NCBI GenBank assembly: GCA_008632985.1
Contig: QPGO01000030.1
Span: 62,001-126,000 of the forward strand
Source of the DNA: Psammoneis japonica
Taxonomy: Eukaryota
Reading direction: 5' to 3'
Length of the DNA stretch: 64,000 nucleotides
A program made the position numbers and the translations under genes. Positions 108-64,000 of the stretch are shown here, piece after piece; position 1 is the first letter of the stretch, and every line of letters starts with the position of its first letter. The notes under the pieces were generated by a model. That model was not told the origin of the DNA and searched no databases. It was given only the letters and a program-made list of their open reading frames with translations.

Positions 108-307
108 GTGTTCTTTCTTGCAGGACTGCAACTGTCCTTAACAAAACCGTTGTATGACCTCAAAACTTTTGGCTTTCACCACACCTCACTCATGCATCTT
201 GCTCTTTGCTGTGAGGGCATTGAACACAGTGCAGCAGGCAGCCAGGCTGGCACCACCAAGAAAGCGCTGGCCAAAACAATGGAGCGAGCCTTTTGTGGCA
301 CACCACA

Positions 308-703
308 TGCACTGTGCTCGGAGAAGGAGTGCAGACAAAAGTGGAGCAAATCACAAAAAGCAAAAAGTGGAAAATCATGAGATGAGATTTGCTTTGGGAT
401 TTTGGGTTTCTCCAAATGAGCTCTCAATGCCCCAAGGCATTCTTTGCACTGCTTCCACAGACCAAAGGCCTTTCGGAGAATCCGGCAGTGATGCAGATTG
501 TCTGGATGCAATCAATTGACACCTTGCGTGTCAACATGGTCTGTTGATCAATTTGCACTTTTTGACATCCAACCAAGTCTGTGTGATTGACCTGCCCTTT
601 GTGCGCACACTTTCGGCTGTGGTGTGGTGTGCCGTTGACATGTGCGAGACAATGCACAGCTGCGAACGGGCATGTTTCTTTCCACTTGGCAGCACATGCT
701 GCA
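308..703 (-). mobile_element. Solo LTR, diverged relative of the LTRs at 3648/6576
   Basis: Starts TGCACTGTGCTCG like the LTRs at 3648 and 6576, shares internal blocks (AAAAGTGGAAA, AAAGGCCTTTCGGAGAA, CAGATTGTC) and ends GCTGCA. Flanked by CACA / CATG, a plausible mutated 4-bp TSD. Confidence 0.7.
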
Positions 704-1814
704 CATGTTCTTGTGTGCAAAGCTTGAGAGTCGAAAGGCAAGTCTGGCATTTTGCATGGAAAGATGGTCCTGAGCCCCCTGTTCCTCGTGCGTTCATCAT
801 CACCATCACAAAGGATGGTTTTTGTGCTTTTCCAGCGAGGGATGACTTTGGTTTTTTTTTGAACAAACGTGGCACCAGGTGCAAAAACCAGCACATGCTC
901 TCCCAGCATGCTGACAAACCACTTCCCTTCTGTCCCAGGGAGTGCTGCAGATCATTTCTTGTCATTCTGTGCAGCTTGGAGCATCACCATCATGCAGCGG
1001 CCATTCATGGAAAGGTCTTTGATGGTTTGTTTTGAGTCAAGTGAGCATGCTGCACACAGCCCTCTTTCCCCTTTGTGAGCTCAGATGGACAAGCAACAAC
1101 TTCCAAGAAAGCAGTGCTCGCTTCATGCCAGATGCAACTTTTGTGCGCTTTTGAGGTTCAACATGGAAGAGTCTGATGAGACAGTTGGTGTGAAGCAGAC
1201 ACCCCAACCAGATGGCCAGGTGTCAGAGTCTGTCTCTCAAGCCAAAAGAGTGGCGCAGGTGAGTCACACAACAAAGACAACACCCAAGTCAGCCAAGAGG
1301 GTCAAGAAGCTCTTGCAGCAGAGCAAGGTGCAGAAGGTTTGGATGACAGCTCCTGTGATGTGCAAGGTGGAGACATGCTTGCCCAGTTGCTGCAGAAGCA
1401 AAGTGGGGAATTTCTTGTTGAGAAAAGCCATCAGCAGCTGGGAGAAGATGGACTGGATGCCAAGGTGATGCGCGAGTGGGGCATCTTGGACTCTGACAAG
1501 CTGCTTTTTGAATCTTCTGACCATCACAAGAACATGATGCTCTTCATCTGGAGAAAGAGATGAGGCCAATGTGGCTCTGAGATGCCTTGGGAAGAAACAA
1601 TGAACAGGTCGTGCACATCAGCAACAGCTCATTGTTCTTGCAGCTCTCCTTGCAATGGCAAAAAACATGGTCTTTGATGAAGGAACCCAGGCACAGGCAC
1701 CCTCTAAAAGCGCGCTGACCACAACAAACTTGACTTTCTGCAGGCCATCCAGAGGGGACACTGGGATGGGCTTTTTCTGTGTGGCTTGAGTGCGGCAGTC
1801 ACAACAGCAGTGGC

Positions 1815-2114
1815 NNNNNNNNNNNNNNNNNNNNNNNNNNNNNNNNNNNNNNNNNNNNNNNNNNNNNNNNNNNNNNNNNNNNNNNNNNNNNNNNNNNNNN
1901 NNNNNNNNNNNNNNNNNNNNNNNNNNNNNNNNNNNNNNNNNNNNNNNNNNNNNNNNNNNNNNNNNNNNNNNNNNNNNNNNNNNNNNNNNNNNNNNNNNNN
2001 NNNNNNNNNNNNNNNNNNNNNNNNNNNNNNNNNNNNNNNNNNNNNNNNNNNNNNNNNNNNNNNNNNNNNNNNNNNNNNNNNNNNNNNNNNNNNNNNNNNN
2101 NNNNNNNNNNNNNN
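1815..2114. other. Assembly gap (300 N)
   Basis: Run of N. Confidence 1.
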
Positions 2115-3647
2115 GTGTGTCAAGTTGTCCACAGTTGAACAAGAAGGGCAATTGATCAGAAAAATGTTGGTCAAGAAATGTGCACGGAAGTGGCAAAACA
2201 ACTGCAAAACAATGACCAGCACAAGGGGCAGTGCACTGAAGTCTTGGCTGACAGCTGTGGCAATCAATGCAGCCAAGCGATGTCAGCACATCTTCATTCT
2301 TTGCAGAGCTGCTCTCGTTGGACCATTGGAATCTGCCCCACAGATGGAGGACAGGAAGAAGTGCACAATGCTGGCTGGCACCTGCAGGCAAAGGCGCTGT
2401 GGCTGCATGGGAGACAATGTGTGGGCGACTCGCAAACCTGCAGCCAAAGCTTTGCCAAAGCTCATTTCTCACTTTTCTGGCTGGCCTTCTTGGAGCATCA
2501 TGCGCACAATTCAACCAAGCTCTTGTTCCTCACAAGGCTGGCGGCAATGAGTGCCAGCAGCGGGGTGTGGGGCACCTGCAGGAGACAGCTTTCTGCCTCC
2601 ATTCACCGCCTCCCATCTCTTCTAAAAGTGGCAGATTTGTTGTTGATGACAAGAAATCAAAACAATGAGATGCAGCTGCGTTGACCACCGCTGCCTCTCA
2701 CATTTTGTTTTGCCACCACTTGGTGCTCTCATCTCATGACAGGCAGCCCTGGGCCTGTTCAGACCCACTGCTGTGAGTGTGCACAAACCAGCTTGAGCAA
2801 GAGGAGCAAACCACATGCGCCAGCATTCTGCACAACAAGTTTGTTGCTGTTCCTTTGTCAGAAAAGCTCTCAAAGCCACAGCCAAGGGTGCACATCAAGC
2901 AAATTTGTGGCGGCTCAGTGGGCACATCAGGAGACCAAGCATTGACTGGGGAGACTTGGAGCCCAGAGCTGGAGGAAACTTTTGGAGAAGGGGCTGCCCC
3001 ACGTGACACTCCAGAAGGCAAAGCTCAAGAGCAAGAAACTCTCAGCATCTCCTGGAGGTTGTCAGCTGCCAGTGTTCCCCTCCAATCCAGACTCACACAA
3101 CCTGCTGCCAACCGCAGTTGTGCTGATGACACAAATGATGCAGCACACCAGAGGTGCAGAGTTGGAGAGGAGCTGTGGCAGTGAACTCCTTCATGCCTTC
3201 AACAAGATCCTCAAGAAACCCAATCCTGCGCCAGCCAACATGCCAAGAGTGCGCTGGCTGGCTCTTCATGAGAGACAAAGCAGCGGGCAAAAGGGGGGCA
3301 CTTCTTGCTCTGCACTGTCAGATGAGAAAACCTCTTGGGCTTGAACTCAGAGCCAAGTGCACTGCCTTTCAATGGGGAGCAGCTGCAAAGCCAAAAGTGG
3401 ATCACCCAAATTTTGATTGGAGCTTCCAAAAAAGACCCCCAAAGCACTGCATGTCATCATGAAGGTGTGTGTCAGTCCCTCCCAGCAGGTCAACAAGATT
3501 GCAGCCAAAAAGCTGTGGCACGTGAGAGCAAGGAAGATGATTTTGGGACTGCAGCCAACTTGTGCCCCATGTTGCTCATCTCCTGCCATGATGTGTCACA
3601 CCCCAGATGATGTTTTGAAGGGTGTCAACAAGCTCACTCAGCACCAG

Positions 3648-4014
3648 TGCACTGTGCTCGAAGAACGAGTGCAAACGAAAGTAGAGCAGTGTGCGAAAAG
3701 TGGAAATTGTGAGGTTGAATTTTGCTCTGTGATTTTTGGTTTCTCCGAACGAGTTCTCAATGGCCTGAAGCTTCTGCACTGCTTCTGCAGACAAAAGGCC
3801 TTTCGGAGAACACATTCGTGACAACAGATTGTCCGGGTGCGATTGCCATTGACACATGAGATGTCAACATCGTCAATCGATCGCACTTGCAATTCTCGAC
3901 ATCCGATCAACTCTGTGTGATCGTTCTGTCCTTTGCACGCATCCACGACTGTGGCGCGATTGACACGCAAATGATGTGTGATCACAAATGTGTGTGCAAC
4001 AGTCGCGTGCTGCA
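3648..4014 (-). repeat. 3' LTR of the Gypsy element
   Basis: Direct repeat of 6576-6942, colinear with no indels and about 33 transitions by hand count. Confidence 0.95.
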
Positions 4015-4027
4015 TTCGCCTCCCCAA
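4015..4027 (-). promoter_or_regulatory. Polypurine tract (plus-strand primer)
   Basis: Minus strand reads TTGGGGAGGCGAA immediately before the TG of the 3' LTR. Confidence 0.8.
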
Positions 4028-6575
4028 TTGCACACCAGAGTCATTTGCAAGTGGACTGTTCGACGGACATCGACAGTGTCAACAATGTCTCCACTTTCAC
4101 TGTGTTGTGCCATTGGCAATGACTGTTGTTGTTTTGTGTGGGCAACGCAGGGCCGCTCCAATTTCCGAATGTCTTTTGAGAGTGACATTGTTTGTTTCTC
4201 ACTTGACATGTGCACACACAGCATTGCGTCGAGCACTCTCATTGACGTTCTTGTTGACATGAACACAAGGACCAATTGTCCTGGAGCAAGTGTTTTTCCT
4301 GACATCGATTGCACACAGCATCGTGCCCAGTGCTTAATGCACGCTCTTGGTCACGGCGTTCACTTGCTTGCTTGTGGATTTCATGCAGTTTGGCGGGCTT
4401 GCTTTGTGTGCCATGTTGCTCTGCTGCACTGCCACGTTTCACAAGCAATGACAAACGATGGTCAAAGATGTCATGACCATTTCGTCTTGACAATCAAATC
4501 CTGTGATGGTTGTGAATTCCATTGTGGATTTTTTTTTTTGCACTTCAACCATCTGTCAGTTGGATTTTAATCGTCATTTGGACGTTTCTTTCTGACATGC
4601 CGGCGCCATTTTGTCATTCCGAAGGCACTGGTTTCGTGCACCAAGTGGACAAATGTCCATTTTTCTTTTCTTTTTCTAGATCTTTGGCACATCTCGTGTG
4701 TCAACATGATGCACATTTTAATGTCTTGCCTCGTACATTGTACAATACAACCGTACGGGTGTTGTGAGATTGTCTTTTGCCAGTGTGAAGTGGATGCGTA
4801 TAATGTACACCAATCTGTCACTGTTTTTTCCTAAATCGTCCTTTAAAAAGGCGATTTTATCCTTGTGACATGAGCATTTTTCGATCTCGCTCGCCTCCAC
4901 GAAAAGTGTTCGTATGATATGTCGCGTCCGACAATTTGGAGGGAATGTCTTTATCCCGTTTTAACGGTAGGACATTGTCGTAGGATTCAATTTTCTATAG
5001 TAAGTCGGCTGATCGCGTCTATCGCGACGATGTTCGCCTTGCCCTCGTTGTATTCTAATTCGGGACTGAAGTTGTCAACGTATGACTTTGTCCGTTGTGT
5101 CTTATGATCCGTATATGTATAAATCTGTTGGCCAAACAGTATATTTCGGAATTTTATAAGTGTTTTCACTATGGACAGAAGTTCTTTTTTTCGTTGTAAC
5201 GTATAATATTGAAATCCGTGTATGATAACAATATAGTTTTTGATTTGATACGCTCCATATTTTCGGAGACTTTTCGTTCCGTACTTGTACTTTTGCCGTT
5301 TGACCTTTATTGAGGTGAATTTGGCTAGTATTGTACAGGAGATCGTTGAGACTACATGTCTCGATAATAGTAACGTATGACAACGAGATGTCGTAGTGTT
5401 CTTTACGTTTTTCTCGTGTTGCGATTGCTTGAATCGCCTCCATTTTCTTTGTAATCGATTGCATATCGTTACGTATGGAAGTCTTGATAGTTTATTTCAA
5501 GTTAAATAGTGAAGGACTTTTGTTGTTAACCTTCTAAGCGACTGTTCTAGTCGTTTGAATGCCGTATTAAGCTGTCACTTGTACAGGTGATATTTTGAAG
5601 TTACTTTTGTCAGGCACAAACGATCACACACAGTCGTTCTGACAACTTCAAACCTGTTATGAGTTCACTCAAGTGTTGTATAAAAATATCTGGGGCTCTA
5701 TAGATTCTCATTGGAAGTCCACAGCACTCATTTTCTCCCCACGGCATGATTTTCGTGTGAGCACGACGTGTGCTTTTTTTATTTGACATGGTGGCATTCC
5801 ATGTTTGAATCAAATAGATTACATTATGAAACGTTCTTGCTTCAATAGTGTTTCCTGAATATTGGGTAAAGGATACACCACCTGTATGAACCTTACACTA
5901 AGCTTCTGAGTGTCGGGTGCGGTCGAACTCGACCTGTTTTCTTTGGACAATGAGTCTCAGAGCGACTTGTTCAGAGTGATTTCATTCTTAAGACTTCAAT
6001 CTTTCATAATAGGTCAAACTCCTTTTGATTGGACGCCTCCAAAGACTATGATAGGAGAAGGTTCTCACGCGTCGTGGAATCGCGTCAGATTTTCCACGAT
6101 GAGATCCGCTGATGCTTCCCATGCATTCGTCTGAGGAACTTTTCAAAACGATTTCAACCTCTTAAGAAGAAGATTGAGTTGGTTGTGTTCATTTGGGTTA
6201 GATGCATCGCCGTAGTTGTCACTTGATTAAGATCGATGGCGTGACAATGTGAGTCGAGGACCATTGGTTCCGTCATTGACTCCATTCACGGCGTCACATT
6301 TTTCAATGTGATCGGTTTTCAGCTTGAAAACATCGGCATCGAAGAGTGTGTGAACATTCTTCATAAGGTAATTGCTTCTTCCCATTAGATTTCTGCATTT
6401 GCGTAGTCCAATGTGACTTGCAGGACTGGACATTAAGTCGCGTCCCATGATCACATCATTTGAACCTGAAGAAAATTTGGTGTTTTCAACATGTGCTGTT
6501 TGAATGTCAGTGTGCCTTAAATTTCGCATGGTGAGAACTGAATTTGGTGTTTACTGTCAGTCGTAAAGAGCTCAA

Positions 6576-6942
6576 TGCACTGTGCTCGAAGAACGAGTGT
6601 AAACGAAAGTAGAGCAGTGTACGAAAAGTGGAAATTATGAGATTAAATTTTGCTCTGTGATTTTTGGTTTCTCCGAACGAGTTCTCAATGGCCTGAAGCT
6701 TCTGTGCTGCTTCTGCAGACAAAAGGCCTTTCGGAGAATGTGTTCGTGACAACAGATTGTCCGGGTACGATTGCTGTTGACACATGAGATGTCAACATCG
6801 TCAATCGATCGTATTTGCAATTCTCGACATCCGATCAACTCTGTGTGATCGTTCTGTCCTTTGCACGCATCCACGACTGTGGCATGATTGACGTGCAAAT
6901 AACACACAATCACAAACATGCACACAACAGTCGCGTGCTGCA
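6576..6942 (-). repeat. 5' LTR of the Gypsy element
   Basis: Direct repeat of 3648-4014. Confidence 0.95.
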
Positions 6943-9900
6943 CCAGCGCTTCTTTTGCACTCAAGCCATTGGCCAAACAGAGCACAGCTTCAGCCCATCA
7001 GCCATTTCTGGCAAATGCCAGCATCAGACAGGAAGCAAAGAAAAAGTTGTTGCAAACTTTGCAAGAGTCATGAGGTGGGGTTTGTGATGAAATCAAGGGA
7101 AAAAACCACCTGCAGAGGCTTGTTGAAAAACTCTGACACAACCAGAGTGCTCAAAGATGACTCACTGCAGAGCATCCTGTTTGCAAGATGTGCGGACACC
7201 CTGGCCTTCCACCCAGTGCCAAACCAGGCCACTGCACAGCACCCACAGAGGCAGCACATGTGTGCTGCAAATTAAAGAAGAAAGACAAGGACCTGCAGCA
7301 AGATGACTTTAAAACAAGATCAGTGCAAAAGGTTGAAGCCAACGGCGCCATTTTGGAGCATGAAAAAAAGGCCATCACAAGATTGTGGGAAATGTCAAAT
7401 TGGTGTCCAGAGGAGGGAAACATCAGAACTGCTGGGGGAGCCTTGGTGCAGCAAAAGATCCTCTGAACACTGGCCTCATTTGTGTGGAAGAGTGGTTGTT
7501 GGCATTGTCAGCCTGTTGAAGAGATGCAAGGAGCTGTTTCCATCCCACACAACTGGGGGAGAGTTGGGTGGAGATTTGCCAACTGGAGATTGTCGAAGCT
7601 GGGAAACCCTGGGAGAGCATGTGTTGCTGTGCTGGCTGGGCAGACCACTGGATGTGCAAGTTGCAGCCACATCTAAAAGCTTGAGACAAGTGGGTGGGGG
7701 GGTCAAACAAGAAGCAGGCACCTGAGCCAAATGGAGGCATGGATCTCATTGATGGCTGGCATCATGTGGTCCATGGAGCACCCACTGGCCACAATTTCAC
7801 TTGCCAAGAAATGGTGTAAAGAGACAGAAAAGTCATTGCTCAAAGCAGCCCAGCCAAAGCTGGAACACCAAAGATCCTCTTCAAGAAAGGTGTCATGCCT
7901 GTCCCAGAAATTTAATGGCGTTGGTCCAATGAAGCTCTGCATTGCCTGGGACCTTTTGAAGCTGTGAGACTCTCATCAACAAGATGACTCTCCATCAATG
8001 GCAGGCTGCAAGAGACACGCTGGTCTTTAAACTCACTGTGTTTCAAAAGTTGGTGTGTCCAGACAGCTGTTTGCCACACACTTGTGCCAGTTTGGAGCAA
8101 CCTGAGCAAAAAAGTTGCTGACAAAGTTGCTGTGGAAATTCTGTTTCAAACATGGTGTTGATCTGCTCACCCTGGCCCGACCAGGCTCCCCCCATGCAGC
8201 ACCAACAACTCTCATTCCTGACAGAGCTGTTTGCCAACTTTGGCTGCAAAGGAGAAATGCTGTGCAAAACCATCATCTGCAGGGGATGGGGGCAAATGTG
8301 TGGTGTGCACGTGTCTGATGCAACAAATTGAAATGGGGCCAGAGCTGCACCAAAACATTGGTGGAGGTGACCCATGTGACTCCCACCACTGTGAACAGTC
8401 CAAAGCTGGACTCCTTCCAAATCTTGCTGAAGACTCTGACACAGGAAGCTCTCACCATGTGGCACTTGTCTGCAGGGTGGGATTCACATCTTAGATGGAG
8501 ACTCAGGAGCCAGCTCAGGAAACCAGTTTCTCCTTGGCTGTGCTCAGTGGCTGGTGAACAACAGAGTGCTCAAAGTGCCGCAATCCACAACAGAGCACTG
8601 CTCCAGACTCCTGGGGCAGTGCAACCAATGCAAGCAAGTGGTGTGTTGCTTCACCAGATGGATTTAAGAAGCACCAACAGATGCTCATCCTGCAGTGCTC
8701 AAATGCTCCAAAGTGGGGGGTCACCAAGAGCACACCAAGGGACACCAATTCAACCCAGCTGGAAGAGATGGAAGAACCAGAGATGAGTGGTCATGTGTTT
8801 CCCACAAGTCAAGTCCAGTTGAGGTGCCTCCCATTGAAAAAATCCTCACCAGTGGAGGAGGAGCCACCAGCATGACCCGTGGCTCCTTCAAAGAGGCTGT
8901 GGCAATGGCCACAATGACTTGTCTTGTCAAACTGGAAAATCTCATCTCACACAGGTGCTGAGGAGCCAAGCCAAACTCAACATCAACTCTCTGACCAAAA
9001 CACAGACAAAGGAGAACTTTGGGGCATCTGCAGCACTCTGCACAAGCTGATGCTCTTGTGCAAAGTGCACATTGTTGATGGAGGCAAGTTTGTCATGGGC
9101 TGCAACAACTGTGACTCTGCCCTCTGTGCATGCAACCACAAACAAATGCAATGCCCCCAGGCAAGCCAGCTGTGATTTGATGAACACAATGCCCCCAGGC
9201 CAGCCAACTGCAATTTGATGTGCCAGGTGAAGAGGATGCAAAAACTGCCAGCCATTGCAGCAGTGCTGGCACAAGAGCTGAAGGCAAGGACACTGAGGTG
9301 TCAAGAGCTGGACCCAAGCAAACTCCACACCTTGAAGCATCAAATGCAGAGACAGATCTCTTGACAAAAGCCTGCTGGCAGGTGCTGGCAGGCACTCCTG
9401 TGCCATTTGACGTGGGACAACAGATGTGCTGGGGGGTGCAAATCTTTGTGGCAGACAAAGCATGGTGGCTCACATGTGGAGCTTCACTTGGGGCACAGCA
9501 TGGTGGCATCACATGTGCGCCAACAAATCCAAAACTTCTGAGCATCTGAAAATTGTGACCACATTTTGGGCAGGTGTGCCAAGGGAAAACACAAGGCAGA
9601 GCTGCCACAGCTGCTGCGCCAGAGGTGCATGAATCGTCTGTTGTCGTTTGTGCACATGCATTTACGCACTCAGTGTGACGCATGGACAACAAGATGATTT
9701 GTGCACCTCTGTGCTGCACCTCTCAACCCTGTCCATCTCCAGATGGCTCACCTGGCTGGTGAAGTGTGCCCAAGCTGAAGAGCCAGGTGGGCTGCAAATT
9801 CTGTTGTGGGGCTGGATGAAGCATTGGCAGCAAAAAAGGCTGTTGCTTTGCTTGGCACAACACTGGCTAAAGCCCCTGGCAAAGAGCCTCAGCTCTGTGT

Positions 9901-10100
9901 GGCACATCTGCCCACAGCTGTGAATGTGGATTTGCGCATGCACTGCGGCGCAAACTGGCACTTCTTTTATGCTGTCCATGGCTGTGAGTTGAGTGTTGCA
10001 CAAGGCATGACTGAGCTTGTTGCAGAAAGCAGCTCTGACAAGATCTGCACAAACTTTGAGGCTGAATTGTTGGTTGACAAACTCTGGAGCTGTGAGAGAC
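6943..10100 (+). mobile_element. Decayed non-LTR (LINE) retrotransposon with RNase H domain (diatom Ambal-like); probably continues left of the Gypsy insertion
   Basis: Fragmentary motifs in order: post-RT region (PKLEHQRSSSRKV..FNGVG ~7860-7925; KLLWKFC ~8125), RNase H-like pieces (GSFKEA ~8880; KGELWGICS..LC..GCNN ~9010-9110; NAETDLLTKACW ~9340). Heavily frameshifted and TA/CG-depleted. Boundaries approximate. Confidence 0.6.
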
Positions 10101-10949
10101 TCAGGGTGACCACCACTTCAAACTGGTCCTTCGATGGGGTTGTTTTTTGACACACCAGGTCAAACGCAGCTTTCGCTGGGGAAGGAAGATGCATGTCCAC
10201 CAAAGTTGACTGACAATCAGCAAAAATCAGGCAGAAGTGGGCTGGCAGTTTGCTTGCACACACAAAGCACTGCAGCAAAAACACTGCACCACCCACTCAC
10301 TGATGATTTGTGTGCGCGCCAGCAGGACTTCTCAAGAAAAAGTGCTTGTCAAGAAGCTCGCTTGTGGCACAAACGCCACACAAGCAACATTGCTCAGCTC
10401 TGGCATGTCAAATGCTGGGTGCAGCACCAGAAACAAAACAAAGCAAAAGGTTGTGGGAGCTGGCTGGGAAGTGCTTCTCATTCTTTCACCTGTTGTTGGT
10501 GCGTGGCAGGCACTGTGTGGTGGCACACCAGTCAAGAGACATGACGGAAGCTCTTGAAGGAAAGCAGCAGGTGCTTTTTAACAGCCAGACAGCCTGCTTT
10601 GTGAGCACACCATGGCTGGCAGCATCGATGGGGCATGGGCTGGCACAGCCGCAAGCAACAAAAAGGGTGTTTGAAAAGCACCCGAAAAGACATGTTAAAA
10701 ATTGAACGGGGATTGAGGGACGGGAGACGACAGACGCACATGATTTGTCCGATTTTCCGAAAAAGAGGCCTTTTGACCTCTTCGGAGTTCTCGTTGCGCC
10801 GCGTTCGCAGAAAACAAAAACACCGACGTCCACAAGATCGCACACAAAACAAACCAGGAAGATCAAGAAGACCTCCTTAGCTACAGCAACGAGAAGAACG
10901 ATAACAGTTGCATCGCCTACGATCGAACAAGAGAAAAGAACAAGACATC

Positions 10950-12665
10950 ATGAAGATTGTCATTGTAGGAGGTGTTGCTGCAGGCGCCAGTGCGGCTGCA
11001 AGAGCGAGACGTTTGGATGAGCGAGCTGAGATCCTTTTGCTCCAGAGTGGACCCGACGTCTCCTTTGCGTCCTGTGGCATGCCTTACTACATTGGCGGCG
11101 AGATTAGGGACCGCGGAAAAATGGCTGTGCAAACTCCCAAGAGCTTGCATGCGAGACTAAACATTGATGTCAAGGTGAACGTGCGAGTCGAGAAAATTCT
11201 CGTTGACGAACAGAAAGTGTCAGTAAAAGACGAAACTACGGGTGACACGACGACGGTGGATTACGATGAACTCGTCTTGGCGGTTGGTGCAGAGCCATTC
11301 AAGCCTCCGATCCCTGGCATTGACCGCAAAGGTCTCATGTCTCTCCGAAACTTGGACGACATGGACAATATAAAGTTCTGGATCGATACCAAGAAGAAGA
11401 ACAGTCCAGGAATGGAAATGCACTGCGTTGTGGCAGGTGCCGGCTTTGTTGGTCTTGAAATGGTGGAGCAACTCGTGAATCGGGGTATCCATGTAACTGT
11501 CGTGGAAATGTTGCCGCAAATTCTCGGTCCTTTGGATGTTGAGATGGCTGCAATTCTTCAGAAAGATCTAGAAGCGCGAGGCGTCACGGTCTTGACAGGC
11601 GATAGCATTGCAGAGTTCAGGCCATCTGACAACGGTGATAGCGACGACACGGTCGTGGTTCTCAAGTCGGGTCGCGCTCTTCCTCCTGCTCAAGTGACAA
11701 TCCTGGGATTAGGAGTTCGTCCCGACACCGCAGTCGCAAAAGATGCTGGAATCGAATGCACCAAGCGAGGCCACATTGCCGTTGACGACTCTCTTCACAC
11801 CTCAGCTCCGCACGTATGGGCCGCTGGCGACGCTGTTGAAGTTCGCAACCCCATACTTGGAGGAGACGCAAAGTGGGCCGTTCCGCTAGCCGGACCAGCT
11901 AATCGTCAAGGAAGAATGGTGGCTGACAACATCTACGGCAAGGGACGCAAGTTCAAAGGCACATACGCTGCTAGCTGCGTGAGAGTTTTCAATTTGCTGG
12001 TTGCTTGCGTAGGCTTGAATGAGAAGTTCCTTGCCGCAAACAATATGCCGTATGAGAGCGTCCATGTTCACCCTGGTAGCCACGCAGGATACTTCCCAGG
12101 CGCTTGCTCTGTGAACTTGAAGCTCATCTTTAACCCCGAGAACGGACAAATCTACGGAGCTCAAGCCGTTGGTGAGGACGGCATTGCCAAGCGTATCGAC
12201 GTCATCTCCACTGCAATGCAGGGCAAATTGACCGTTGAAGATCTTGCCGAGATTGAACTCTGTTACGCCCCTCCCGTTGGCAGTGCAAAAGACCCTGTCA
12301 ACATGGCTGGCATGGCCGCCCAGAACGTCATGGAAGGATTCGTGACCCAGATAGATTGGAAGGATCTTCCCGCGGCAGCACAAGATCCAGACACTATCAT
12401 TCTTGACGTTCGCGGTCCCTCTGAAATACTGAACAATGGAACACTCATTGAGGGGGCCCTCAACATTCCGCTCAATGACCTGAGGGGACGACTCGATGAA
12501 CTCCCCAGGGACAAGCGAATCATTGTTTCTTGTGCCTCAGGGCAGCGGGCGTACTATGGGTGTAGAATCCTCAAGCAGAGTGGCTTTGAACGCGTTGACA
12601 ACTTGAGTGGTGCCTTCAAGACGTATAGCAAGTCGCCGGTCTACATTTCAGGTGTTCCGAATTAG
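10950..12665 (+). CDS. CoA-disulfide/persulfide reductase with C-terminal rhodanese domain (CoADR-RHD / Npsr-type flavoprotein)
   Basis: GGVAAG FAD motif, SFASC redox cysteine, GAGFVG NAD motif, WAAGD, CYAPP dimerisation motif, rhodanese CASGQR. Intronless, 571 aa. Confidence 0.93.
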   Translation: MKIVIVGGVAAGASAAARARRLDERAEILLLQSGPDVSFASCGMPYYIGGEIRDRGKMAVQTPKSLHARLNIDVKVNVRVEKILVDEQKVSVKDETTGDTTTVDYDELVLAVGAEPFKPPIPGIDRKGLMSLRNLDDMDNIKFWIDTKKKNSPGMEMHCVVAGAGFVGLEMVEQLVNRGIHVTVVEMLPQILGPLDVEMAAILQKDLEARGVTVLTGDSIAEFRPSDNGDSDDTVVVLKSGRALPPAQVTILGLGVRPDTAVAKDAGIECTKRGHIAVDDSLHTSAPHVWAAGDAVEVRNPILGGDAKWAVPLAGPANRQGRMVADNIYGKGRKFKGTYAASCVRVFNLLVACVGLNEKFLAANNMPYESVHVHPGSHAGYFPGACSVNLKLIFNPENGQIYGAQAVGEDGIAKRIDVISTAMQGKLTVEDLAEIELCYAPPVGSAKDPVNMAGMAAQNVMEGFVTQIDWKDLPAAAQDPDTIILDVRGPSEILNNGTLIEGALNIPLNDLRGRLDELPRDKRIIVSCASGQRAYYGCRILKQSGFERVDNLSGAFKTYSKSPVYISGVPN

Positions 12666-21979: not shown

Positions 21980-22687
21980 CCACGACCGGCAAATAAGATA
22001 CGTATACCTTTCAGACTTTTAAGCTTTTTCATAAGGTTTGAGAATGTGTGTGAAGTCTCACACCAGCTCTGGAGATACATCTTCGCTCTCGCCTTGTCAA
22101 AGTTGCATGGTTTCGTTTTGGTCCACTCCCTCTCTAGGTTAGGAAGGTATAGGCATGTTGAGTGCTGCTCCTGTTGGTCATGGGTTGGTTAGATAGAAAG
22201 TTCAAACCTCAACGTCCTTTTTGGTGGACCAAGGCGAAAACGAGATTCAATCTGGATTTTCATACCCCGACTTTCCATGCCGCAGCATGTCGTGATGCCT
22301 TCTAGTACTCGCAGCAAGAAAATACACTCATCTTGGATATTAACTGCCCTCGTGACGAGTAAGGAGTAGAGCGGGATAGGACTGAACACACCTTGAACCT
22401 GAATGCAGGTATCGCAATTTCAAACTGCGCTCTACGGAAAATGTTGACTAAACGAATATTCCGCGCTGGCAGCAAGATAAGAGCGGAGAATCCTCTTCGC
22501 GATGGGTATCCATACCTTTGGACAACGTTTCCATGAGCCGCCGCAGCGTTCATACACCTACACAGCTAAACCCTCGTATCCCGTATTGCATGTCTTGATC
22601 GGCACTAAACTAGATATTTCAGTAGCATCATTCATTTCTTCCCATAGCAATCAAAACTGCCAGAGTACAGTACATCCTCTCTAAGAC

Positions 22688-28600: not shown

Positions 28601-28750
28601 AGCGCAATTTTTTCACAGCTCGACAGCAACTCCCAAATGATCAGCACACCGCCAAACAAAGTCACAAATGGCATCTTCAATGGAAGGACACGGCGACAAT
28701 TAGAACAAACAGTTTTTCCCAGAACGGAAGAACAGACTAAAAGCAGCCAC
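25700..28750. other. TpA/CpG-depleted hypermutated block (unidentified repeat plus a gene-fragment remnant)
   Basis: Only about a dozen TA in 3 kb by eye; six-frame ORFs essentially lack Tyr. Confidence 0.85.
28165..28320 (-). pseudogene. Degenerate inverted copy of the 5' end of the gene at 28938
   Basis: Translates to LKFFNDATSSALNEWECAA...SPSLSEQRQK versus LMFFNDATSALNEWEYTA...PPSLSEHRQK in the intact gene; frameshifted. Confidence 0.85.
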
Positions 28751-34515: not shown

Positions 34516-34577
34516 TAGCTACACATGATAGATACGGTAAGCTAGTAGATAAGCTATGCGTAATAAAGCTTTTGAAG

Positions 34578-42230: not shown

Positions 42231-42314
42231 GCCCTAACTGATTCTATTGTATATTTGCGATAGTCTAGCAGTCCCTCTCGAAGAGAGTATTCATGCATGC
42301 AGTGCACGATATAT

Positions 42315-43121: not shown

Positions 43122-43302
43122 CGTCACCGCTCACTTTGAACTTGCTTTTGGCTTCTTGTTGACTTTGTCTTGTGCGTGTGGATGCGCTGCGCTGGAAGCT
43201 TCTCCGCTTTTTTTCGCGAGACGCGAGAGCGCGCCGCAAGTAAAACACCCATCCCCGCCCCGTCCCTGACCTCGAATGGTCCGCAATCAGTGATTCCGAA
43301 TT

Positions 43303-43320
43303 CTCTCTCTCTCTCTCTCT
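43303..43320. repeat. (CT)n microsatellite at the edge of a TA-depleted block
   Basis: About 9 CT units. Confidence 0.85.
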
Positions 43321-43329
43321 GAAAGTGCT

Positions 43330-44350
43330 GGAGAACACTTCTTGCTTCTTGCATCAGAGCAAACAAATGACCTGGTCATCGGAATTGTGCTTCTTCTCAT
43401 TGTTCTGAAGAGCAACAAGAATGAGTCATTTCCTCACATGGCCAAACCCCAGTGTGCATTTGGACAGGCTGTTGCTGCTTCAGCAAGAAAGCTGGCAAAT
43501 TGGGCCATCCCGGGCGGCGCCAGCACAGCACACACTCTGGATTCTCCACAGTGGCTGCTGGCTGTTGTCCTTCACTGCAAAGACTCCTCCACCACTTGCT
43601 GCATCACAGCCACAGATGGGGCAAGAACTCAACACTCTCACGTGCCGTGCCGCGCACACCACCATCATCAACGTCGTCATCTGGCTTGCACCAGGGCACT
43701 CCAGAGCTGCAAATGCCAAGGGGCATGCACCCGCAATTGCATGGGTGCTGCATGGAGCACACCAAAGAACTCAATGCCAGCACCAAGAAGAGCCCACATT
43801 TCAAGTTTCCGCCAAAGGCATGGCTGGCTGTCTCGCCAACAATCCTGCCACAAAGTCGCCTGCTGTTGCTTGGTTTTTGCCCCCCTCTCTGGGTCAGCTT
43901 TCCAGGGGTGCTTTTTCAACCACCCTCATCTCCAAAGGATGGTGCTTGCAAGTCTGGCTGAAAAGGGGGCACAGCTTTGTGTTCTTTGATCACAGCTGGA
44001 TGCCTGACAGCTTTTGGAGCATTGCATCTCCTCTCACGCCAAGTGCTGGCAGCTGCTGTGCTCCCCAGCTTCGCTGACTGTGGGATGGATGAGTTCCCCA
44101 GTTTTGGCACTGCTGCAGAGAGACCAGCACCAACCTTTCCACGCTGCTTTTGGAAGGACATTCGTGGTTCGGGGCCCCAGCAGCCAGCTCCTCTCCCTCC
44201 CCTTTGGCTGCTTCCAGCCATCACTCCTGACTCCACACTTGCTGCACCACCGCCTGCAACACCTGGTCTACACTGGAAGAAACACACCATCGCCATCGTC
44301 ACCTGTGCAGTCGACAACACAACACGTTTGTCGGTCATGTCAGTGACATG
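43330..44350. other. TpA-depleted block between divergent genes
   Basis: About 1 kb with almost no TA; long Tyr-poor ORFs in all frames. Confidence 0.8.
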
Positions 44351-44745
44351 CATGTCAGCGATGACCACACCTGCTTCAACAGATAATGTTATTCAGAGTT
44401 TAATAAACGTATTTTGATCATAATGGCGGTTCGCGAACGTTATTTGGGCGGGAAAAGTCAGCGACGTGCGACGTGCATGTTGCATGTGCGATGTATGCAC
44501 TTCCAATTTGGCAATGGCTGCTTACTACTCGTACCGCTACACCAGCAGCGCTCCTACTCCGACAGCAGACGCAGACTACAATACGTAATACGTAGAGTCT
44601 ACAAACGACAAACTCGAAGATAGCGAGAGGAGCTAACTGCCGTGAATCTAGTGCAAACAACATCAACGCGCAAGAACACAGACTGGAGACCTACCACCAC
44701 CCCCAACGAATTGAACAACAGCGGCGCAGACAGTTTCAGAGAAGC

Positions 44746-49159: not shown

Positions 49160-50480
49160 CTCAGTCGCAGCAGTCACTGACCACCCTGGGCAAGTGTTTT
49201 TGGTGAATGAACAAGTGTGCATGTGTTTGTGTGTGCATGTGTGTGTGTGTGTGTTTGTGAGCAGCTCTGTGGTGTTTGGTCGCAGGGGGTGGCTGTGAGA
49301 GCTCCTGGTGCTTGGTGACACTCGGGCCCCAGCCGGAAGCTCATGCATGATGTGGTGTGGCAGCGGCTCCAACGATGACTTGTTCAAAAGCTCTGATGGG
49401 CTTGGGAACTCATGCAATGGCTCTTCCTCCACAAAAAGGATTCACAACTTTTTGTGCTGTTGTCAGCTGTGAGGTGTTCCAGCCCTGGGCGCCAGTGCTT
49501 CTTGCAATGTTGCTGGGCCCACAGCATTCTGCATTTGAGCTCAGCAGCAAAAATCATCAGGTGATGTGTTCTGGCCCCAGGCAGGGCTGCTTGTGACACA
49601 TTGGGCCCATTGAAAAACTTCCAGTGTAAGCTCTGCAGCAAAGTCATTCTTCAGCAACTGGAGTGTGATGGTGAGTGACTGCCAACAGGAAAAAGAGGCA
49701 ATTTTGTAAATGTGCAAACTCCTCCACACTTGAAACTTGAAGCACATTGTTTCCAGTTTGCCTGGGTGCACCCTCCAGACATTAAAGAACATGCCCAACC
49801 CATTTTTGTTCTCACCAATGAGAGCGCAACAGAAAGCCTTTGGCTCCACAAAACAGGGGCAAGAAAAAAATGCAAAAGCGCAGCACCCAGAAATGTGCAG
49901 GCTTGATGAACAGCATGACAAAAAAACTTTGATGTCACAGTGCAGCATTGCAAGGTTCCACCTGGAGCTGGAATGCATCAGCTGTTGAGCATGTGAGCGA
50001 TTGCCAACCAAAAAAGAGGCAATTCTGTGGGTGCACCAACTCCTCCACACTTGAAGCACATCATTTTTGGTTTGCCCTGAGCTCACTTCTGTTCTCACAA
50101 GCAGGCAAAATGAAAAGCATTTGGCTTTGCAAAACAGGGAGCATGAGACAATTTTGCAGATGACGCACACGGCACATGACCAAAAAACTCTCCATGTGCC
50201 ACAGAGAGCAGCAGCAGTGCTGGGTTCCACCTGGAACTGGAGCACCTTGTGCATGCCTGTTCGCTGTGCAGTGGTCAGTGCCCTCCCTCCCCTCCCAAAG
50301 CCTGAAGGGCTTGTTCTTTCTGTGAGTGGAGTGTGCAAGTGAGTCAGTGGCTCTGAGTTTGGCTGTGTGGGGCATGTGAAGTCCGGACTGGGCCGACCCG
50401 TGCAACGACCATTCCTGTGAAAACGATGGAACTTTGCACTGTCAGTCATGATGTCGCACCATGTCATGTTTGGTTTGTTC
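49160..50480. other. TpA/CpG-depleted block with internal direct repeats and a (TG)n tract; probable non-autonomous repeat
   Basis: TGCCAAC..AAAAAGAGGCAATT....AACTCCTCCACACTTGAA at ~49680 and ~50002; GGTTCCACCTGGA.CTGGA at ~49954 and ~50223; TG-rich tract 49215-49258. Confidence 0.75.
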
Positions 50481-55579: not shown

Positions 55580-56650
55580 CTAAAACTGCTGTCTGTTTGC
55601 CTTGTGCTGGCACCAACTTCCAGGCAGTTGAGAGCCCCAAACACATCCTCTCCACAGACGAGTTCATGGTGTGGCCGCGGTTCTTCTTGGACCTTGTGGC
55701 TGTCTTCTTTTGCCAGACGTGAGCATTTTTCACCTTTGCAGCACCTGCATGCTCTCTTTGCTCTGCTTGATCTTTCAGATTTTTTTGGTGAAGACAGCAC
55801 TCACAAAAACCAAGTTGAGTTTGAGCCTCGCTTTCAACTGCTGCCTGCTGCATCTTGTGAAGGGATCGGTTGGGGGCGGTTGGGTTCTGGGTGGTCTGGC
55901 ACAGCCACTTGCCTTCAGAAGAAGAAAATCAAACAGGCACAAGTGCTCCCACTTGCTCACATTAGGAGATGTCTTCAGGTGATCATGCGTGTGCGCAAGA
56001 CTCTGAAAAGTCAGGTGTGCCTTTGTGTGCATCTCGCTTGTGTGTGCAGTCAATGAGAGAGGTGCAGCCAGTGCATGTTGGCAGCAATGCTGCACAGAAG
56101 AGGCCAGATGGCCAGGGTGCAACTTCTTTTTGTGAACATTTGTGAGAAGCTTGTGCTTTGTGCTGAGGGTGGCTTGCAGCCCCTGCCGAGAAACTTGTGC
56201 ACCTTGCAAGCTCCCAATGCAATGGGGGTTGTTGCTGCCAAACAAGAGGGCAAATCAGCAGACAAATCTCCCTGCACCTTGCTTCTCTCACCCACTCCAA
56301 ATGGATTTGGGTGAGCTCAAGTGCTTGTTGATGGTCAAAATGACAGTGGGGGGTGACAGGGGGGGGATCATCATCCACAAAGCATCAGTTTTTCAACGCA
56401 TTGAAGAAAAAATGTGGCAAAAAGGTTGTGCTGTGTTCTTCACTGAAAACGAGACACCCCAGCTGGAGCTCAAGTGCAAACACCAAATGCGCCAAAAGGA
56501 TGCCCCCGCATGCAGGATTGGGTGCTTTACATGGTTCATTCCAATTAGAATTGGTCATTGTTGTGGCTTTGCTTGCGGTTCACATTGCTCAATTTCTCAT
56601 GCATGTGCGATGAAACGCGTGTTTGTTGTTATTTGCCTGTGTCCATGCCA
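55580..56650. other. TpA/CpG-depleted block
   Basis: Very few TA; Cys/His-rich, Tyr-free ORFs. Confidence 0.8.
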
Positions 56651-62300: not shown

Positions 62301-62487
62301 TTCTTTTGGCAAAACCGTGCTGGCACAAGGTTGTTTTACCTGAACCCGAAACGCCGTGTACAGTTATGACTCGACACCCAGCTCCTGCTAGATGGCAATC
62401 GTTCCACGCATTTCGTAATGTATTCAGCTCGTCGTCTCGCCCCTGAATTGAGTGGCTCTGAGAAAGCTTCAATCGATTCTTCGACAT
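59350..62487 (-). CDS. STAND-class AAA_16 ATPase with TPR-like helical region (COG3899-like)
   Basis: GRDDEL, GVSGSGKT, GKFDQ..EPY, PLVLFFDDIQWSD, THGNPFF, YKFSHDRIRQCAY, QLNYG, LNLQAA. Intronless. Confidence 0.88.
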   Translation of the reverse strand: MSKNRLKLSQSHSIQGRDDELNTLRNAWNDCHLAGAGCRVITVHGVSGSGKTTLCQHGFAKRKDGYMASGKFDQYASSGEPYSGISKALGDLARELQNQSQHDVLERCMKDECGILVGIVPELDQGAGTNQDINPRGEMTSESMSFASERISVALEAFFKEFCSPDRPLVLFFDDIQWSDRNSLTIIMNLAKNPEIHHLILLLGYRDGGEGAAELEPLESLVSTLPEAINIQLGNLDIKSVNALIADTLFVEEDESQDLASLVLRRTHGNPFFVLRFLEMLDRRDLLKRNFVGWKWNMDEVIAETEVSDNVVDVLARQVQSLPGKVQRLLMLASCLGFFFNVEIIQSLLEGGIALPLVDKPPHENGIPENVLFNGSEEVSFEDALELAIMEGLIEKANQLYKFSHDRIRQCAYELLPPGEDRNAVHYRIGRLVYESFLLDQDDRFLLLTVNQLNYGISQVRNEQEILLLIKLNLQAAKAVKEKSAIELANQYTREALKLIRPKHWDIAYDTAMELETFAAETEWSLGRAQDSERHVETVLKHSISLEDTMRARVVRLKLLANSQVTQAIAEARSLLKQLGHSVPPSITPFLIHEIMKTKRMLKRKSLEELSRKDLIQDDRALWSLRIFQLLFFYGWNSDPILSMMSIVRAVQLSIKYGYSEVTPSAFAGWGYMLACSGDLADACRFGDFAIAQIKSKNEMASTYATACFSTMFKKPSVINLDLLLQGYRAGLETGDVYRGSICIAIYADLYVSLSGLPLKPFAADMYRFGRSILACRQFELTNYVSTSLQLALILTGQANYLDISLDRTGDLLGGTVSQTPSPQAKLAALYKELFVRYILNAPIEQVFDEIQGLSKKRYDGAHFFNFFSTLLDGLAAFQLYRSLGRKRYHRIASKARNKLKTHVKNGSVDCVSMLALLQAEDKSLSSTRVDQVKPQFDAVISQFLKTGMTHFGAIANERAAEQMTRFGDAECAQDYIQRASELYYTFGATKKVEEMARIHSFLHVPSYLSEEGGVTRRGCQRFESAKDSYGVNTSAAHASRASVQ

Positions 62488-62809
62488 GGCTTTTGCGTAG
62501 AGCACATTTAGAGTTCAGCAAGTGTTAGAGTGCTGTCTACTGTCTACAGCAGGTAAAAGCGGTTTACATTTTTTACAAAAAAGAGTTTTTTTGTTTGTCA
62601 CTGTTTGCACTTTGCACCCACCGGCAGTGCGATTATTCCAGGTTGCACGCGCGCGCGCGTTGCACGTTGCACGCAGATCAAAGATCAAGGTGTCAACTGC
62701 ATGTTGAAGTTGGTTGAAGGTGCCTTCACTTACGTAGGTACTCGAGCAATCAGATGTGGTGGGTGTCACGTGCTGCCGAACATAATTTTTAAGTCCGCCC
62801 TTTTCAGTG

Positions 62810-64000
62810 GGCCCCATCCACATCTTCTGTCAGCCACAGTCGAATGTGCAAAGAACTTGACCAGCGGTCTGACATCTCCCACCCGTGCTGTCTGCTCTGA
62901 TGCACATGTTGAACCAGCCCGCCACAGCAGCAGAAGTTCCACCAACAGCTGGAGCGGGCAGCTGGCTGCTCTGGTGCTGGGGGCTTCACTGAGAGTGCAA
63001 AAAAACTCTTTTGGCAACAAGCAAGCAGCTGGCTGGGGGCTCCCTCCTGGTGGCTCCACAAGAAAAGCAAGCTGACCAAGTCTTTCAGACAACACTTCAG
63101 TCTTTGTAAAGTTCTCTGTTTTGGCCTCCAGGCAGTGCCAAGTCCTTGATCCCCAAACACTTGAGATGGCAGAGCTGACCATCACAAATGCATTGTGTTT
63201 GACAGATGACAACTGGGTTTTCTTGCCTGCCACACAAAGTTTCAGACTTTGATTTCTGTCTCAGGCTGTTTGCCTCTTCCCCTTCCCCTCAGATCATGCT
63301 TTCTGACCACTTTGCTGTGCACAGCTTGCAGCAGGGTTGTCCAAAACTGCAGCAAGACTCTGTCATTCCACCCCACAGACATGGAAACTGCTGTTGGCAC
63401 CTTTTGTGGTGGATGGAGGCCATGATGTGATGCTCAGAAAAGTCAGTTCTCAAAGAGCACTGCTGCTGCCACGACAATGACAATGATCACCAGGATGAAA
63501 ACAAAAATGCACCATGCCTGCACTGTCCACTGTGCATGCATCTGAGCAGCACCCACAGCACAAGGAATGCTGGTGACGCATGCTCTGAACATGCCTGCAT
63601 CTGTCCATTGTGTGCCACTGCCTCAAGAGTGCAGCTGCTCCAGCTTTCTGCTGGAGCATGCCGTGCCACAACAAATCAACAAAACTTTTGACTTTGAGAC
63701 ATCATGATGTTGTGTGCTTTTCATGTGCCAAAAGATCAATCACTTGCAAGGGGCTGGGGCATGAGCATCATCTGAGCAGTGTCATGGACAGACAGCTGTG
63801 GGATTGTGGCAGTTTGTGCTGCAGAGAGCAAAGTGGCAAAGCAGACAATCAAGCAGTGTGCGGGTTTGCCAAGCTGCTCTGCATTGTGAAAACAAAAAAA
63901 CTGCACCACTTGACAACCAACAACCAAAGAAAAAAAAACGAAAAGTGGATTGTCTTTGTGCCAGAACCAATTTGGACAAACATGGCACAAAACCTTTTGT
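62810..64000. other. TpA/CpG-depleted block running off the window end
   Basis: About 1.2 kb with almost no TA. Confidence 0.8.

Follow-up and report, generated by a model that had tools for sequence, protein, structure and literature searches.

In Neurospora and other ascomycetes, RIP turns CA into TA before meiosis and requires a RID-type methyltransferase. TadA-type enzymes deaminate adenine in DNA in engineered adenine base editors, and the substrate of TadA is UACG. The closest known system to the process described here has been published for Bigelowiella natans: in the part of the preprint available to us, Mettrop et al. (bioRxiv 10.64898/2026.01.13.699255) report heritable A/T>G/C mutation of integrated viral DNA, at TpA only, ~1000-fold over the background rate and arising in some vegetative lines but not in others, with patchy activity and with ADAT2 proposed as the enzyme. 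DNA adenine deamination is also described for amphioxus BjADAT2/3, of which BjADAT2 prefers TCG and GAA and hairpin loops, not TA (PMC10354150, accessible portion). Diatoms encode DNMT4, a possible RID relative, and Phaeodactylum shows DNMT5-dependent CG methylation (PMC9998398, accessible portion). Within the accessible parts of the open-access and bioRxiv literature, we found no comparable process reported for diatoms.

Could such a process operate in a diatom? We analyzed a 64-kb window of contig QPGO01000030.1 of Psammoneis japonica, in which a preliminary description had proposed seven blocks that nearly lack TA. A two-state Markov HMM (TA-depleted versus normal), applied to the whole window, called seven depleted segments totaling 14.4 kb and thereby recovered all seven blocks (Table 1). 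The observed/expected ratio (o/e) of TA is 0.03 in these segments and 0.54 outside, that of CG 0.18 versus 1.05, and CA and TG reach 1.77 and 1.86 inside. Between 6943 and 10700, where about 13 TA had been estimated, exactly 13 were counted; base composition predicts 223, and the rate of the normal compartment 138 (Poisson P ~1e-42). The distribution of TA o/e is bimodal: 25 of 128 windows of 500 bp lie below 0.1, the main mode is found at 0.4–0.7, and 4–6 windows per bin occupy the trough at 0.1–0.3. Segmentation is clear, and the HMM segments together with the profile along the contig confirm that sequence alone suffices to map the domains; of the 184 kb profiled, roughly one third is TA-erased DNA. 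The block limits required refinement, since 3659–4720 keeps its CG and 6580–6942 is a partly converted LTR outside the old block.

Table 1. Features of the 64-kb window (window coordinates)
Feature	Position	Strand	Basis and remarks
Block 1, old TA-less/CG-less block, left half	156..3647		HMM; includes 300 N at ~1815-2114
Old relic of the same LTR family	304..635	+	73-75% identical
Target-site duplication CCAG, 4 bp	3644..3647, repeated 6943-6946	+	sequence; 4-bp duplications flank other copies too
LTR retrotransposon, young, internally deleted, partly converted	3648..6942	-	family ~4.73 kb
Left LTR	3648..4014		1 TA remaining
Hot tract of element	3648..4720		comparison with natural copy L039
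Spared middle of element	4721..6230		comparison with natural copy L039
Right LTR, partly converted	6576..6942		8 TA remaining versus ~30 in least changed copies
Block 2, old block, right half	6943..10700		HMM segment 6902-10683; 13 TA
Normal gene, pyridine nucleotide-disulphide reductase with rhodanese domain	10950..12665	+	domain search; flanks block
Block 3	25877..28690		HMM
Multi-copy family fragment in block 3	26794-27092		copies elsewhere
Inverted relic of neighbouring gene's 5' end, in block 3	28203-28317		sequence comparison
Normal gene, family unassigned	28938..30107	+	flanks block; spliced-run contig covers from 28858
Block 4, between two divergent genes	43320..44266		HMM
Block 5	49168..50381		HMM
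Block 6	55583..56526		HMM
Block 7	62798..64000		HMM; degenerate internal repeats

What are the blocks made of? The segment 156–3658 holds 2 TA where 192 are expected and 47 CG where 207 are expected, and not a single TA occurs from 43242 to 44268 in block 4. In block 5, 49443–50258 contains 1.5 copies of a high-copy repeat, which is TA-poor at its other locations too; block 7 extends ~5 kb beyond the window, to window coordinate ~69000. The gene relic in block 3 has all four of its TA and five of eight CG replaced by CA or TG. The sole match of 6943–10700 to other loci is a ~110-bp piece at 9614–9729. Among the matches listed, no terminal inverted repeats above the null were seen at block ends, except for the LTR relic. 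A Pfam scan of the 70 listed block ORFs of at least 100 aa gave weak matches in three proteins, none reaching the cut-off and none to a transposon family. Because no block ORF matches a transposon family and block 6 has no relatives elsewhere in the genome (a similarity search returned one match, itself), mobile origin is established for part of the block DNA only; not every block is a recognizable repeat.

The retrotransposon between blocks 1 and 2 belongs to a family with 492 LTR candidates in the genome and gives a weak RT_RNaseH match at 4990–5496 (E 5.8e-5, under the curated cut-off). Its CCAG duplication indicates that the two blocks were one old block before the LTR element inserted. 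Compared with L039, the hot tract has 85 of 90 TA changed (43 to CA, 39 to TG, 3 to CG) and 42 of 44 CG kept, while the spared middle retains 98 of 112 TA and 75 of 75 CG. In the old relic, TG or CA replaces 10 of 17 TA and 10 of 18 CG of the young LTR; changes thus grow with age.

Could the composition simply be passive, the product of a genome-wide avoidance of TA, of GC-biased gene conversion or of elements already poor in TA when they inserted? TA is indeed mildly low everywhere (o/e 0.54), yet the least changed copies of the LTR family are TA-rich with ~38% GC, change is restricted to A:T pairs in TA context, and 0 of 970 windows from related metagenome loci fall below a TA o/e of 0.15. 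The copy comparisons refute this explanation, to which we give practically no credence. A TA-low window accompanies 7 of 12 copia RT loci of this genome but none of 78 copia loci from metagenomes, and at many of the latter only CG is lost, with TA normal; the metagenome control consists of loci with intact RT on short contigs from unnamed hosts and so does not demonstrate absence in other diatoms. Scanning a viral contig set for copia RT gave no match.

We then scored 302 TA sites across 20 element copies (5627 cells; 14 sites dropped as apparently inherited). TA persists in 3291 cells, and the remainder read CA (1232), TG (1063), CG (21) or other (20), so that CA, TG and CG account for 2316 of the 2336 changed cells. 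In 17 within-element LTR pairs, 333 of 336 differences are transitions, including all 33 between the two LTRs of the element in the window, and one LTR carries 30 TA where its twin carries 5. These differences place the TA changes after insertion. Over 159 copy pairs, direction sharing averages a z of 0.21 (sd 1.04), and at 231 of 316 sites there are copies with TG as well as copies with CA. The TA changes arise post-insertion, independently in each copy, on either strand and in tracts of ~1–3 kb or more. Unconverted parts of copies L034 and L032 adjoin TA-less flanks; the tracts are therefore not simply spreading from the flanks.

The LTR pairs bear directly on editing during retrotransposition, by ADAR on RNA or by an editor on cDNA, as in APOBEC-edited retroelements. 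Clustered transitions in young LTR copies and an ADAR-type domain encoded in the genome would fit such editing. Its signature, one strand affected and both LTRs alike, differs from what is seen: a single copy is changed on both strands to about the same extent, as many as 33 transitions separate the two LTRs of an element, and the host-gene relic carries the same change. This explanation is largely refuted by the LTR pairs, and we regard it as exceedingly improbable.

Within hot cells 74% of TA are converted versus 1.7% in cold cells, the classes themselves being defined on conversion. Cold non-TA cells, 16190 in number, contain 17 private changes, and relative to these a calculation by hand puts the TA figure of hot cells at ~700-fold, a ratio of accumulated changes and not of rates. 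Per-strand rates depend on the following base (TAC 1.13, TAT 1.15, TAG 0.50, TAA 0.43), TpA being lost ~2.5x faster when its A precedes C or T (TAY). The TA surviving in old blocks reflect this rule: 25 of 27 have a TAA/TAG-type setting on one strand or both, chiefly TTAA, CTAA/TTAG and GTAA. We saw no nucleosome-scale periodicity of site susceptibility, no clear effect on it of local GC or of distance to the nearest CpG, and no hairpin-loop or TACG preference at converted sites. Strand coordination is weak, both within 6 nt (431 of 735 versus 376±12) and within 300 nt (1266 of 2459 versus 1224±20), which points to many rounds of mutation.

Since TA is self-complementary, TAY as an adenine target equals 5'-RTA as a thymine target, and the attacked base is not readable from sequence. 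A modified base might accordingly be the intermediate: the thymine of 5'-RTA would be oxidised to 5hmU or 5fU and mispair with G, or the adenine of TAY would be methylated and then deaminated. The motif can be read just as well with T as the target. An enzyme-written mark might also account for the sharp domains. The genome has no Tet_JBP match at E 0.1, an absence from a search and not a proof, and we consider such an intermediate quite unlikely.

How does CpG loss relate to the loss of TA? Private changes, counted with three divergent copies omitted, include CpG>TpG at 52 of 3543 hot versus 3 of 1959 cold cells (P 2e-7), ~10-fold higher in hot tracts. AA>AG is raised as well (33 of 7818 versus 2 of 3686, P 4e-4); C>T at CC and CT is not (6 of 7026 versus 6 of 3014). 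The CpG excess over these other C>T changes in hot cells is that expected of 5mC decay. In hot tracts of young copies, 1.5% of CpG are changed versus 74% of TA, making CpG changes ~50-fold rarer, and among 264 sampled 1-kb windows 22 are TA-low with mid or normal CG and one is CG-low with normal TA. Because CpG>TpG is raised in the same tracts yet far rarer than TA loss, both mutators exist and act on the same DNA, and TA is lost first. The preliminary description had two mutators funnelling DNA towards TG/CA; both conversions are found, in the same tracts, but they are very unequal.

These counts also weigh on error-prone repair in heterochromatin, by which a T:G mismatch derived from 5mC, or another lesion, would recruit a Pol-eta-like polymerase that places G opposite T at WA, TA loss being a by-product. 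The joint rise of CpG decay and AA>AG in hot tracts and the slight strand coordination within 6 nt speak for it. Pol eta, however, mutates AA at a level that differs from TA by a few-fold at most and produces many transversions, and this signature is not what the element copies show: AA>AG stands at ~0.4% versus 74% at TA sites, 99% of TA-site changes are transitions, and transversion-type states fill 20 of 5627 cells. TA changes also exceed CpG changes ~50-fold per site, without clustering near CpG. We judge error-prone repair unlikely.

Might the blocks be a sequencing or assembly artefact, for instance because long reads are miscalled where repeats carry modified bases? Contigs of DNA run X1 cover 24600–26857, 27045–28461, 28463–30547 and 36731–44500 and differ from the assembly by 1, 1, 0 and 7 letters, the listed differences including TA>TG at 25610 and CG>TG at 44251; one 13.4-kb X1 contig spans block 4. 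This check covers old blocks 3 and 4, not young copies, and X1 may be the assembly's own sample, which leaves the suspicion some ground. Against it, X1 matches the blocks with 0–1 differences per 1.4–2.3 kb piece, the load of changes rises with age, being lighter in the young LTR than in the old relic, and the same spectrum was measured de novo by short reads in Bigelowiella (10.64898/2026.01.13.699255, available part). An artefact is very unlikely. A second run, X2, labelled 'DNA?', skips seven GT..AG or CT..AC intervals and thus behaves as RNA. Its contigs cover genes, and bins over most of blocks 3 and 4 have no depth; a single contig run cannot demonstrate silence.

Transitions had been placed within 100–200 bp, just short of promoters. 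Over 28 edges, TA falls sharply from 40–58 per kb outside to 0–5 per kb inside, a sharpness partly built in because the edges are defined on TA. CG, in contrast, fades over ~200–300 bp inside the TA edge, from 36–49 to 15 per kb; this halo rests on the pooled profile only, the paired offset being positive in 15 of 21 cases (P 0.08). Of 11 gene-facing edges, eight lie ~70–500 bp upstream of putative start codons picked by eye, as the promoter claim would have it, but three face 3' ends, and the bias is not beyond chance (P ~0.11, by hand).

We propose, with a probability of roughly 60%, that a DNA-level mutator acting on integrated transposon and relic DNA by targeted adenine deamination, together with 5mC decay, has produced the blocks as its end state. 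That a real targeted TpA mutator is involved is very probable; that it is tied to methylated or silent chromatin is probable; towards deaminase chemistry behind TA loss we lean slightly. A single A:T>G:C transition on either strand converts TpA to TpG or CpA, and every such change abolishes its own target, so that TA becomes exhausted. CpG>TpG/CpA, raised in the same tracts, proceeds far more slowly, so that old blocks lose CG too and fill with TG/CA. The tracts may represent silent, CpG-methylated chromatin, where CG loss would be ordinary 5mC deamination and TA loss the enzymatic deamination of adenine to hypoxanthine, read as G. An enzyme of TadA/ADAT or ADAR type would be brought to this chromatin and act at a low rate across many cell divisions, not in one sweep, leaving permanent damage to mobile DNA.

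Which enzymes could serve? The genome encodes ADAT2-like, TadA-like and two ADAT1/ADAR-type deaminases and several C5 methyltransferases (27 matches to PF00145), all of them candidates only. The ADAT2-like gene sits at ~119.8 kb of G000:C26, the TadA-like gene at ~7.4 kb of C38, and the ADAR-type genes at ~344.5 kb of C79 and ~112.7 kb of C40. The candidate ADAT2, L056, carries HAE, EPCIM and, in the next exon, GCRNDRFGG, which puts Asn at the TadA D108 position (assigned by eye). HxE-PCxxC with this Asn also marks the candidate ADAT2 of Bigelowiella, a weak pointer because the asparagine is widely conserved in ADAT2. The second ADAR-type protein is found across diatoms, and the deaminase set of the genome looks ordinary. 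A search of the ESM atlas returned the A_deamin family only. At L068 a chromodomain ORF adjoins a C5-methylase ORF, which fits the DNMT4 architecture in the accessible portion of PMC9998398.

It is a tentative and rather doubtful extension that genome defence in some diatoms relies on a natural DNA adenine editor guided by chromatin, in which methylated mobile DNA would recruit an ADAT/TadA- or ADAR-type deaminase and TpA would be erased within a few hundred thousand generations, before CpG decay, stopping ~1–2 nucleosomes short of genes. If true, this would, together with Bigelowiella, suggest that mutational immunity with a polarity opposite to RIP extends across SAR, and a natural TA-specific DNA adenine deaminase would be of interest to base-editing work. 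So far a single preprint describes natural A:T to G:C editing at a defined motif in chromosomal DNA. This genome offers a saturated, mappable record: informative sites number in the thousands, susceptibility follows a flanking-base rule, and the tracts are common to CpG decay. Enzyme and targeting signal thereby become testable in algae that can be cultured. In Psammoneis japonica, the ages of LTR elements and the divergence of repeats are inflated many-fold, and TA o/e could stand in as a repeat-domain map once checked against the methylome.

The process looks like the mutation-based genome defence reported so far in one unrelated alga. As far as the available part of the Bigelowiella preprint goes, the two hosts have in common that A/T>G/C transitions hit TpA on either strand, that they stay within local stretches of mobile or foreign DNA, and that TA-poor, CA/TG-rich windows form clusters. 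The near-exclusive spectrum recurs in our 2316 of 2336 changed cells, and so does the confinement, with the LTR family, repeats and copia loci affected and genes normal. The hosts differ, a diatom here and a chlorarachniophyte of a different supergroup there, as do the targets: LTR elements, repeats and gene relics versus integrated viral DNA. Erasure reaches an o/e of 0.03 versus a Rho of 0.45 in the Bigelowiella viral region. CpG decay and the 3' pyrimidine preference of the diatom tracts are not reported in the available part of that preprint, whose supplementary mutation table may bear on them. Deamination of 5mC in methylated transposons accounts for the CG>TG/CA half of the pattern but cannot remove TA. 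With DNA deamination by TadA/ADAT2 the diatom process would share pure A>G chemistry, and its sequence context, T on the 5' side and a pyrimidine on the 3' side, is similar to the TadA substrate, yet it lacks the TACG or hairpin preference. RIP, like the diatom process, leaves permanent dinucleotide-specific transitions in mobile DNA and two compositional compartments. We reject it here for its opposite polarity and for an inverted duplicate (16552–18305/22636–24391; 1.75 kb, 95% identical) that, in this one case, keeps 52 of 59 TA despite close duplication, the trigger of RIP. RIP acts by C:G>T:A and raises TA; the diatom process removes it.

Does the contig fall into two compartments? A two-state HMM recovered the seven blocks of the preliminary description as depleted segments at nearly the same positions, with observed/expected (o/e) ratios of 0.03 for TA and 0.18 for CG, compared to 0.54 and 1.05 in the normal state; CA and TG are near 1.8 in the depleted segments. 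The exact TA count in 6943-10700 is 13, in line with the earlier estimate. The longest runs without TA in the window reach 900-1550 bp (P ~5e-15 for 900 bp at the normal-compartment rate). The proposed bimodality of TA o/e is present within the window and likewise in a wider sample of 1-kb windows, drawn from 184 kb of the window's contig and eight arbitrarily chosen 10-kb pieces of other contigs, where 74 of 264 windows are TA-low. Segmentation on TA only assigns 60.6 of the 184 kb to the low state. The depletion of TA in the window is real, strong and not ordinary.

Contigs of the DNA sequencing run X1 cover 30/30 bins of 24600-44500, and in the pieces that span blocks 3 and 4 the mismatches to the window number 1, 1, 0 and 7 letters. 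With 5 differences from another locus excluded, sequence context was inspected for 35 of the listed X1 differences, 23 more being outside this set; two of the 35 lie at block margins (TA>TG at 25610, CG>TG at 44251). A small risk of artefact remains for young repeat copies, as the check spans 24600-44500 and X1 is possibly the source sample. Loose X1 contig ends, joined by other sequence, occur at 25587 and 42705, the latter inside the IF3 gene, where the joining sequence is TA-free in the 30 letters shown. These joins may be insertion alleles or captured fragments that lie elsewhere.

Genes of the normal compartment are of ordinary kinds. Pfam matches were obtained for 15 of 29 scanned ORFs, including a disulphide reductase, an AAA ATPase, IF3, and armadillo and kelch proteins. 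Genes in 28858-42600 are covered by contigs of the spliced run X2, which, though listed 'DNA?', is an RNA data set, since it skips introns. An inverted duplicate carries an internally repetitive ORF of 417 aa that has no Pfam match; both copies keep TA and CG, the exceptions being a few TA changed to TG/CA at the 3' edge. The window corresponds to G000:C30:62001-126000 (G000, the 91.4-Mb assembly). The assembly contains 24 silicon-transporter matches (best E 2e-208), which identify the organism as a diatom, and one 1511-aa open frame at G000:C38:226311-230342 comprises three silicon-transporter units.

Coordinates of features in the window
Feature	Position	Placement	Remark
Depleted blocks 1 to 7	156-3658, 6902-10683, 25877-28690, 43320-44266, 49168-50381, 55583-56526, 62798-64000		
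Putative start ATGs	-323, 10950, 28938, 43036, 44746, 48673, 55373, 62487	facing block edges	
Young LTR element	3648-6942	between blocks 1 and 2	flanked by CCAG duplication
Older relic of the same LTR	304-635	inside block 1	
Inverted relic of neighbouring gene's 5' end	28203-28317 vs 28962-29072	inverted, in block 3	76% identical; TA, most CG erased
Tandem 123-bp duplication	30483-30728	3' end of DEP/ARM gene	both copies nearly TA-free
Inverted duplicate	16552-18305 / 22636-24391		95% identical

At block edges TA density falls abruptly, and CG declines over 200-300 bp on the inner side; a paired edge test of this CG halo gave 15/21, which is not significant. The suggestion that blocks stop just short of promoters describes 8 of 11 gene-facing edges, which lie upstream of a putative start, and fails for the 3 that face 3' ends. 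On a plain reading, the blocks occupy intergenic space up to DNA in use, through either protection or selection.

The young LTR element divides what was a single old block into blocks 1 and 2. Its family (492 LTR candidates in the genome) is ~4.73 kb long, with 4-bp target duplications and a weak RNase H match. Block 3 contains a piece of a multi-copy family besides the relic of the next gene, and block 5 a high-copy repeat; block 4 sits on a single unbranched X1 contig. No relatives elsewhere in the genome were detected for block 6 or for the greater part of block 2, and no block ORF reached the Pfam cut-off. A mobile or duplicated origin is thus established for part of the block DNA, and we infer it for the rest.

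We compared 20 natural copies of the LTR family, 19 fetched around LTR matches plus the window's own. TA occurs in at least one copy at 381 alignment columns; a filter for clean columns retained 316 of these, and 302 remained after removal of 14 that looked inherited. At these sites the cells read TA (3291), CA (1232), TG (1063), CG (21) or other (20). Transitions make up 333 of 336 differences across 17 LTR pairs; TA change therefore comes after insertion. Its direction, to TG or CA, is independent among copies. Most converted tracts are 1-3 kb long, the shortest being a few hundred bases and the longest the entire element, and they often include one LTR; their ends recur near alignment columns 1100, 1900-2200, 2500-2600 and 4100-4400, and an adjoining tract does not always carry on the state of the flank. 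The region around the RNase H remnant (columns ~1100-1900, window ~4720-5500) is spared in many copies. In the window's copy, TA is changed at 85/90 sites at the left end, 13/112 in the spared middle and 14/22 in the partly converted right. Conversion depends on context (0.89 with TAY on both strands, 0.75 on one, 0.34 on none). Strand coordination is weak and short-range, which favours many separate hits.

How does the loss of CG relate to that of TA? In the young family, CA or TG occupies only 118 of ~4050 cells at CG-majority sites. With three divergent copies excluded, private CpG>TpG changes number 52 in 3543 cells of strongly TA-converted (hot) tracts versus 3 in 1959 of hardly converted (cold) ones, with no rise of other C>T in hot cells. 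The old LTR relic has lost 10 of 18 CG. The 74 TA-low windows are CG-low (52), mid (19) or normal (3), and only 1 window of 264 is CG-low with normal TA; of the 52.3 kb that is CG-low along the 184 kb, 51.2 kb falls within TA-low DNA. Among the copia RT loci, the best 12 include 7 with TA-low windows, with CG o/e of 0.77-1.0 in their RT. Together these results indicate that TA is lost first and CG later in the same DNA. Of the two mutators proposed earlier, joint action on the same DNA stands, corrected to an ordered course. Among related metagenome loci, 0/78 are TA-low and many are CG-low.

An adenine deaminase would best fit the TA loss as read from these alignments, because the change is purely A:T>G:C at one dinucleotide, follows a flank rule and spills over slightly to A>G at AA within converted tracts. 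A preference for hairpins was not found. Error-prone synthesis as the source is unlikely, and a route through a modified base as intermediate somewhat less likely still; Tet/JBP, which would bear on the latter, was not found in the genome. The deaminase genes of the genome include some that we take to be ADAT2-like, TadA-like, dCMP-, RibD- and guanine-deaminase-like, naming them beyond Pfam from motifs, and two of ADAT1/ADAR type; none stands out. The second ADAT1/ADAR-type gene (L168/L169, G000:C79:344558-345390) has relatives in Skeletonema, Thalassiosira, Seminavis, Nitzschia, Fistulifera and Pseudo-nitzschia, and the listed diatom homologues carry PF02137 alone, without a dsRNA-binding domain. 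A single ORF (L055:313-1785, G000:C79) fuses a TadA-like deaminase domain to a 2OG-Fe(II) dioxygenase and probably serves base salvage. Activity on DNA is reported for amphioxus ADAT2 (PMC10354150).

C5-methylase matches number 27 in the genome. Methyltransferase copies L065-L067, L071 and L074 (G000 C301, C297, C28) lie within TA-less DNA (o/e 0.03-0.11), some with stops, and are possibly mobile or viral cargo struck by the mutator. At L068 (G000:C34:42155-45664) a chromodomain ORF is followed by a C5-methylase ORF, an arrangement resembling the chromo-DNMT4 proteins of diatoms in PMC9998398, which also provides the background on diatom DNMT5 and DNMT4.

Compared to known systems, the process resembles RIP in its mode of working but differs from it in polarity, which is opposite. 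Spectrum and locality match the TpA process of Bigelowiella (10.64898/2026.01.13.699255). We found no report of such TA erasure in diatoms in the open-access literature and bioRxiv; the diatom case extends a process described once to a new lineage, in a more extreme form. The present analysis adds that CpG decay is coupled in cis to TA-hot tracts and that TA loss precedes CG loss, along with maps of independence and tracts across 20 copies and the metagenome control.
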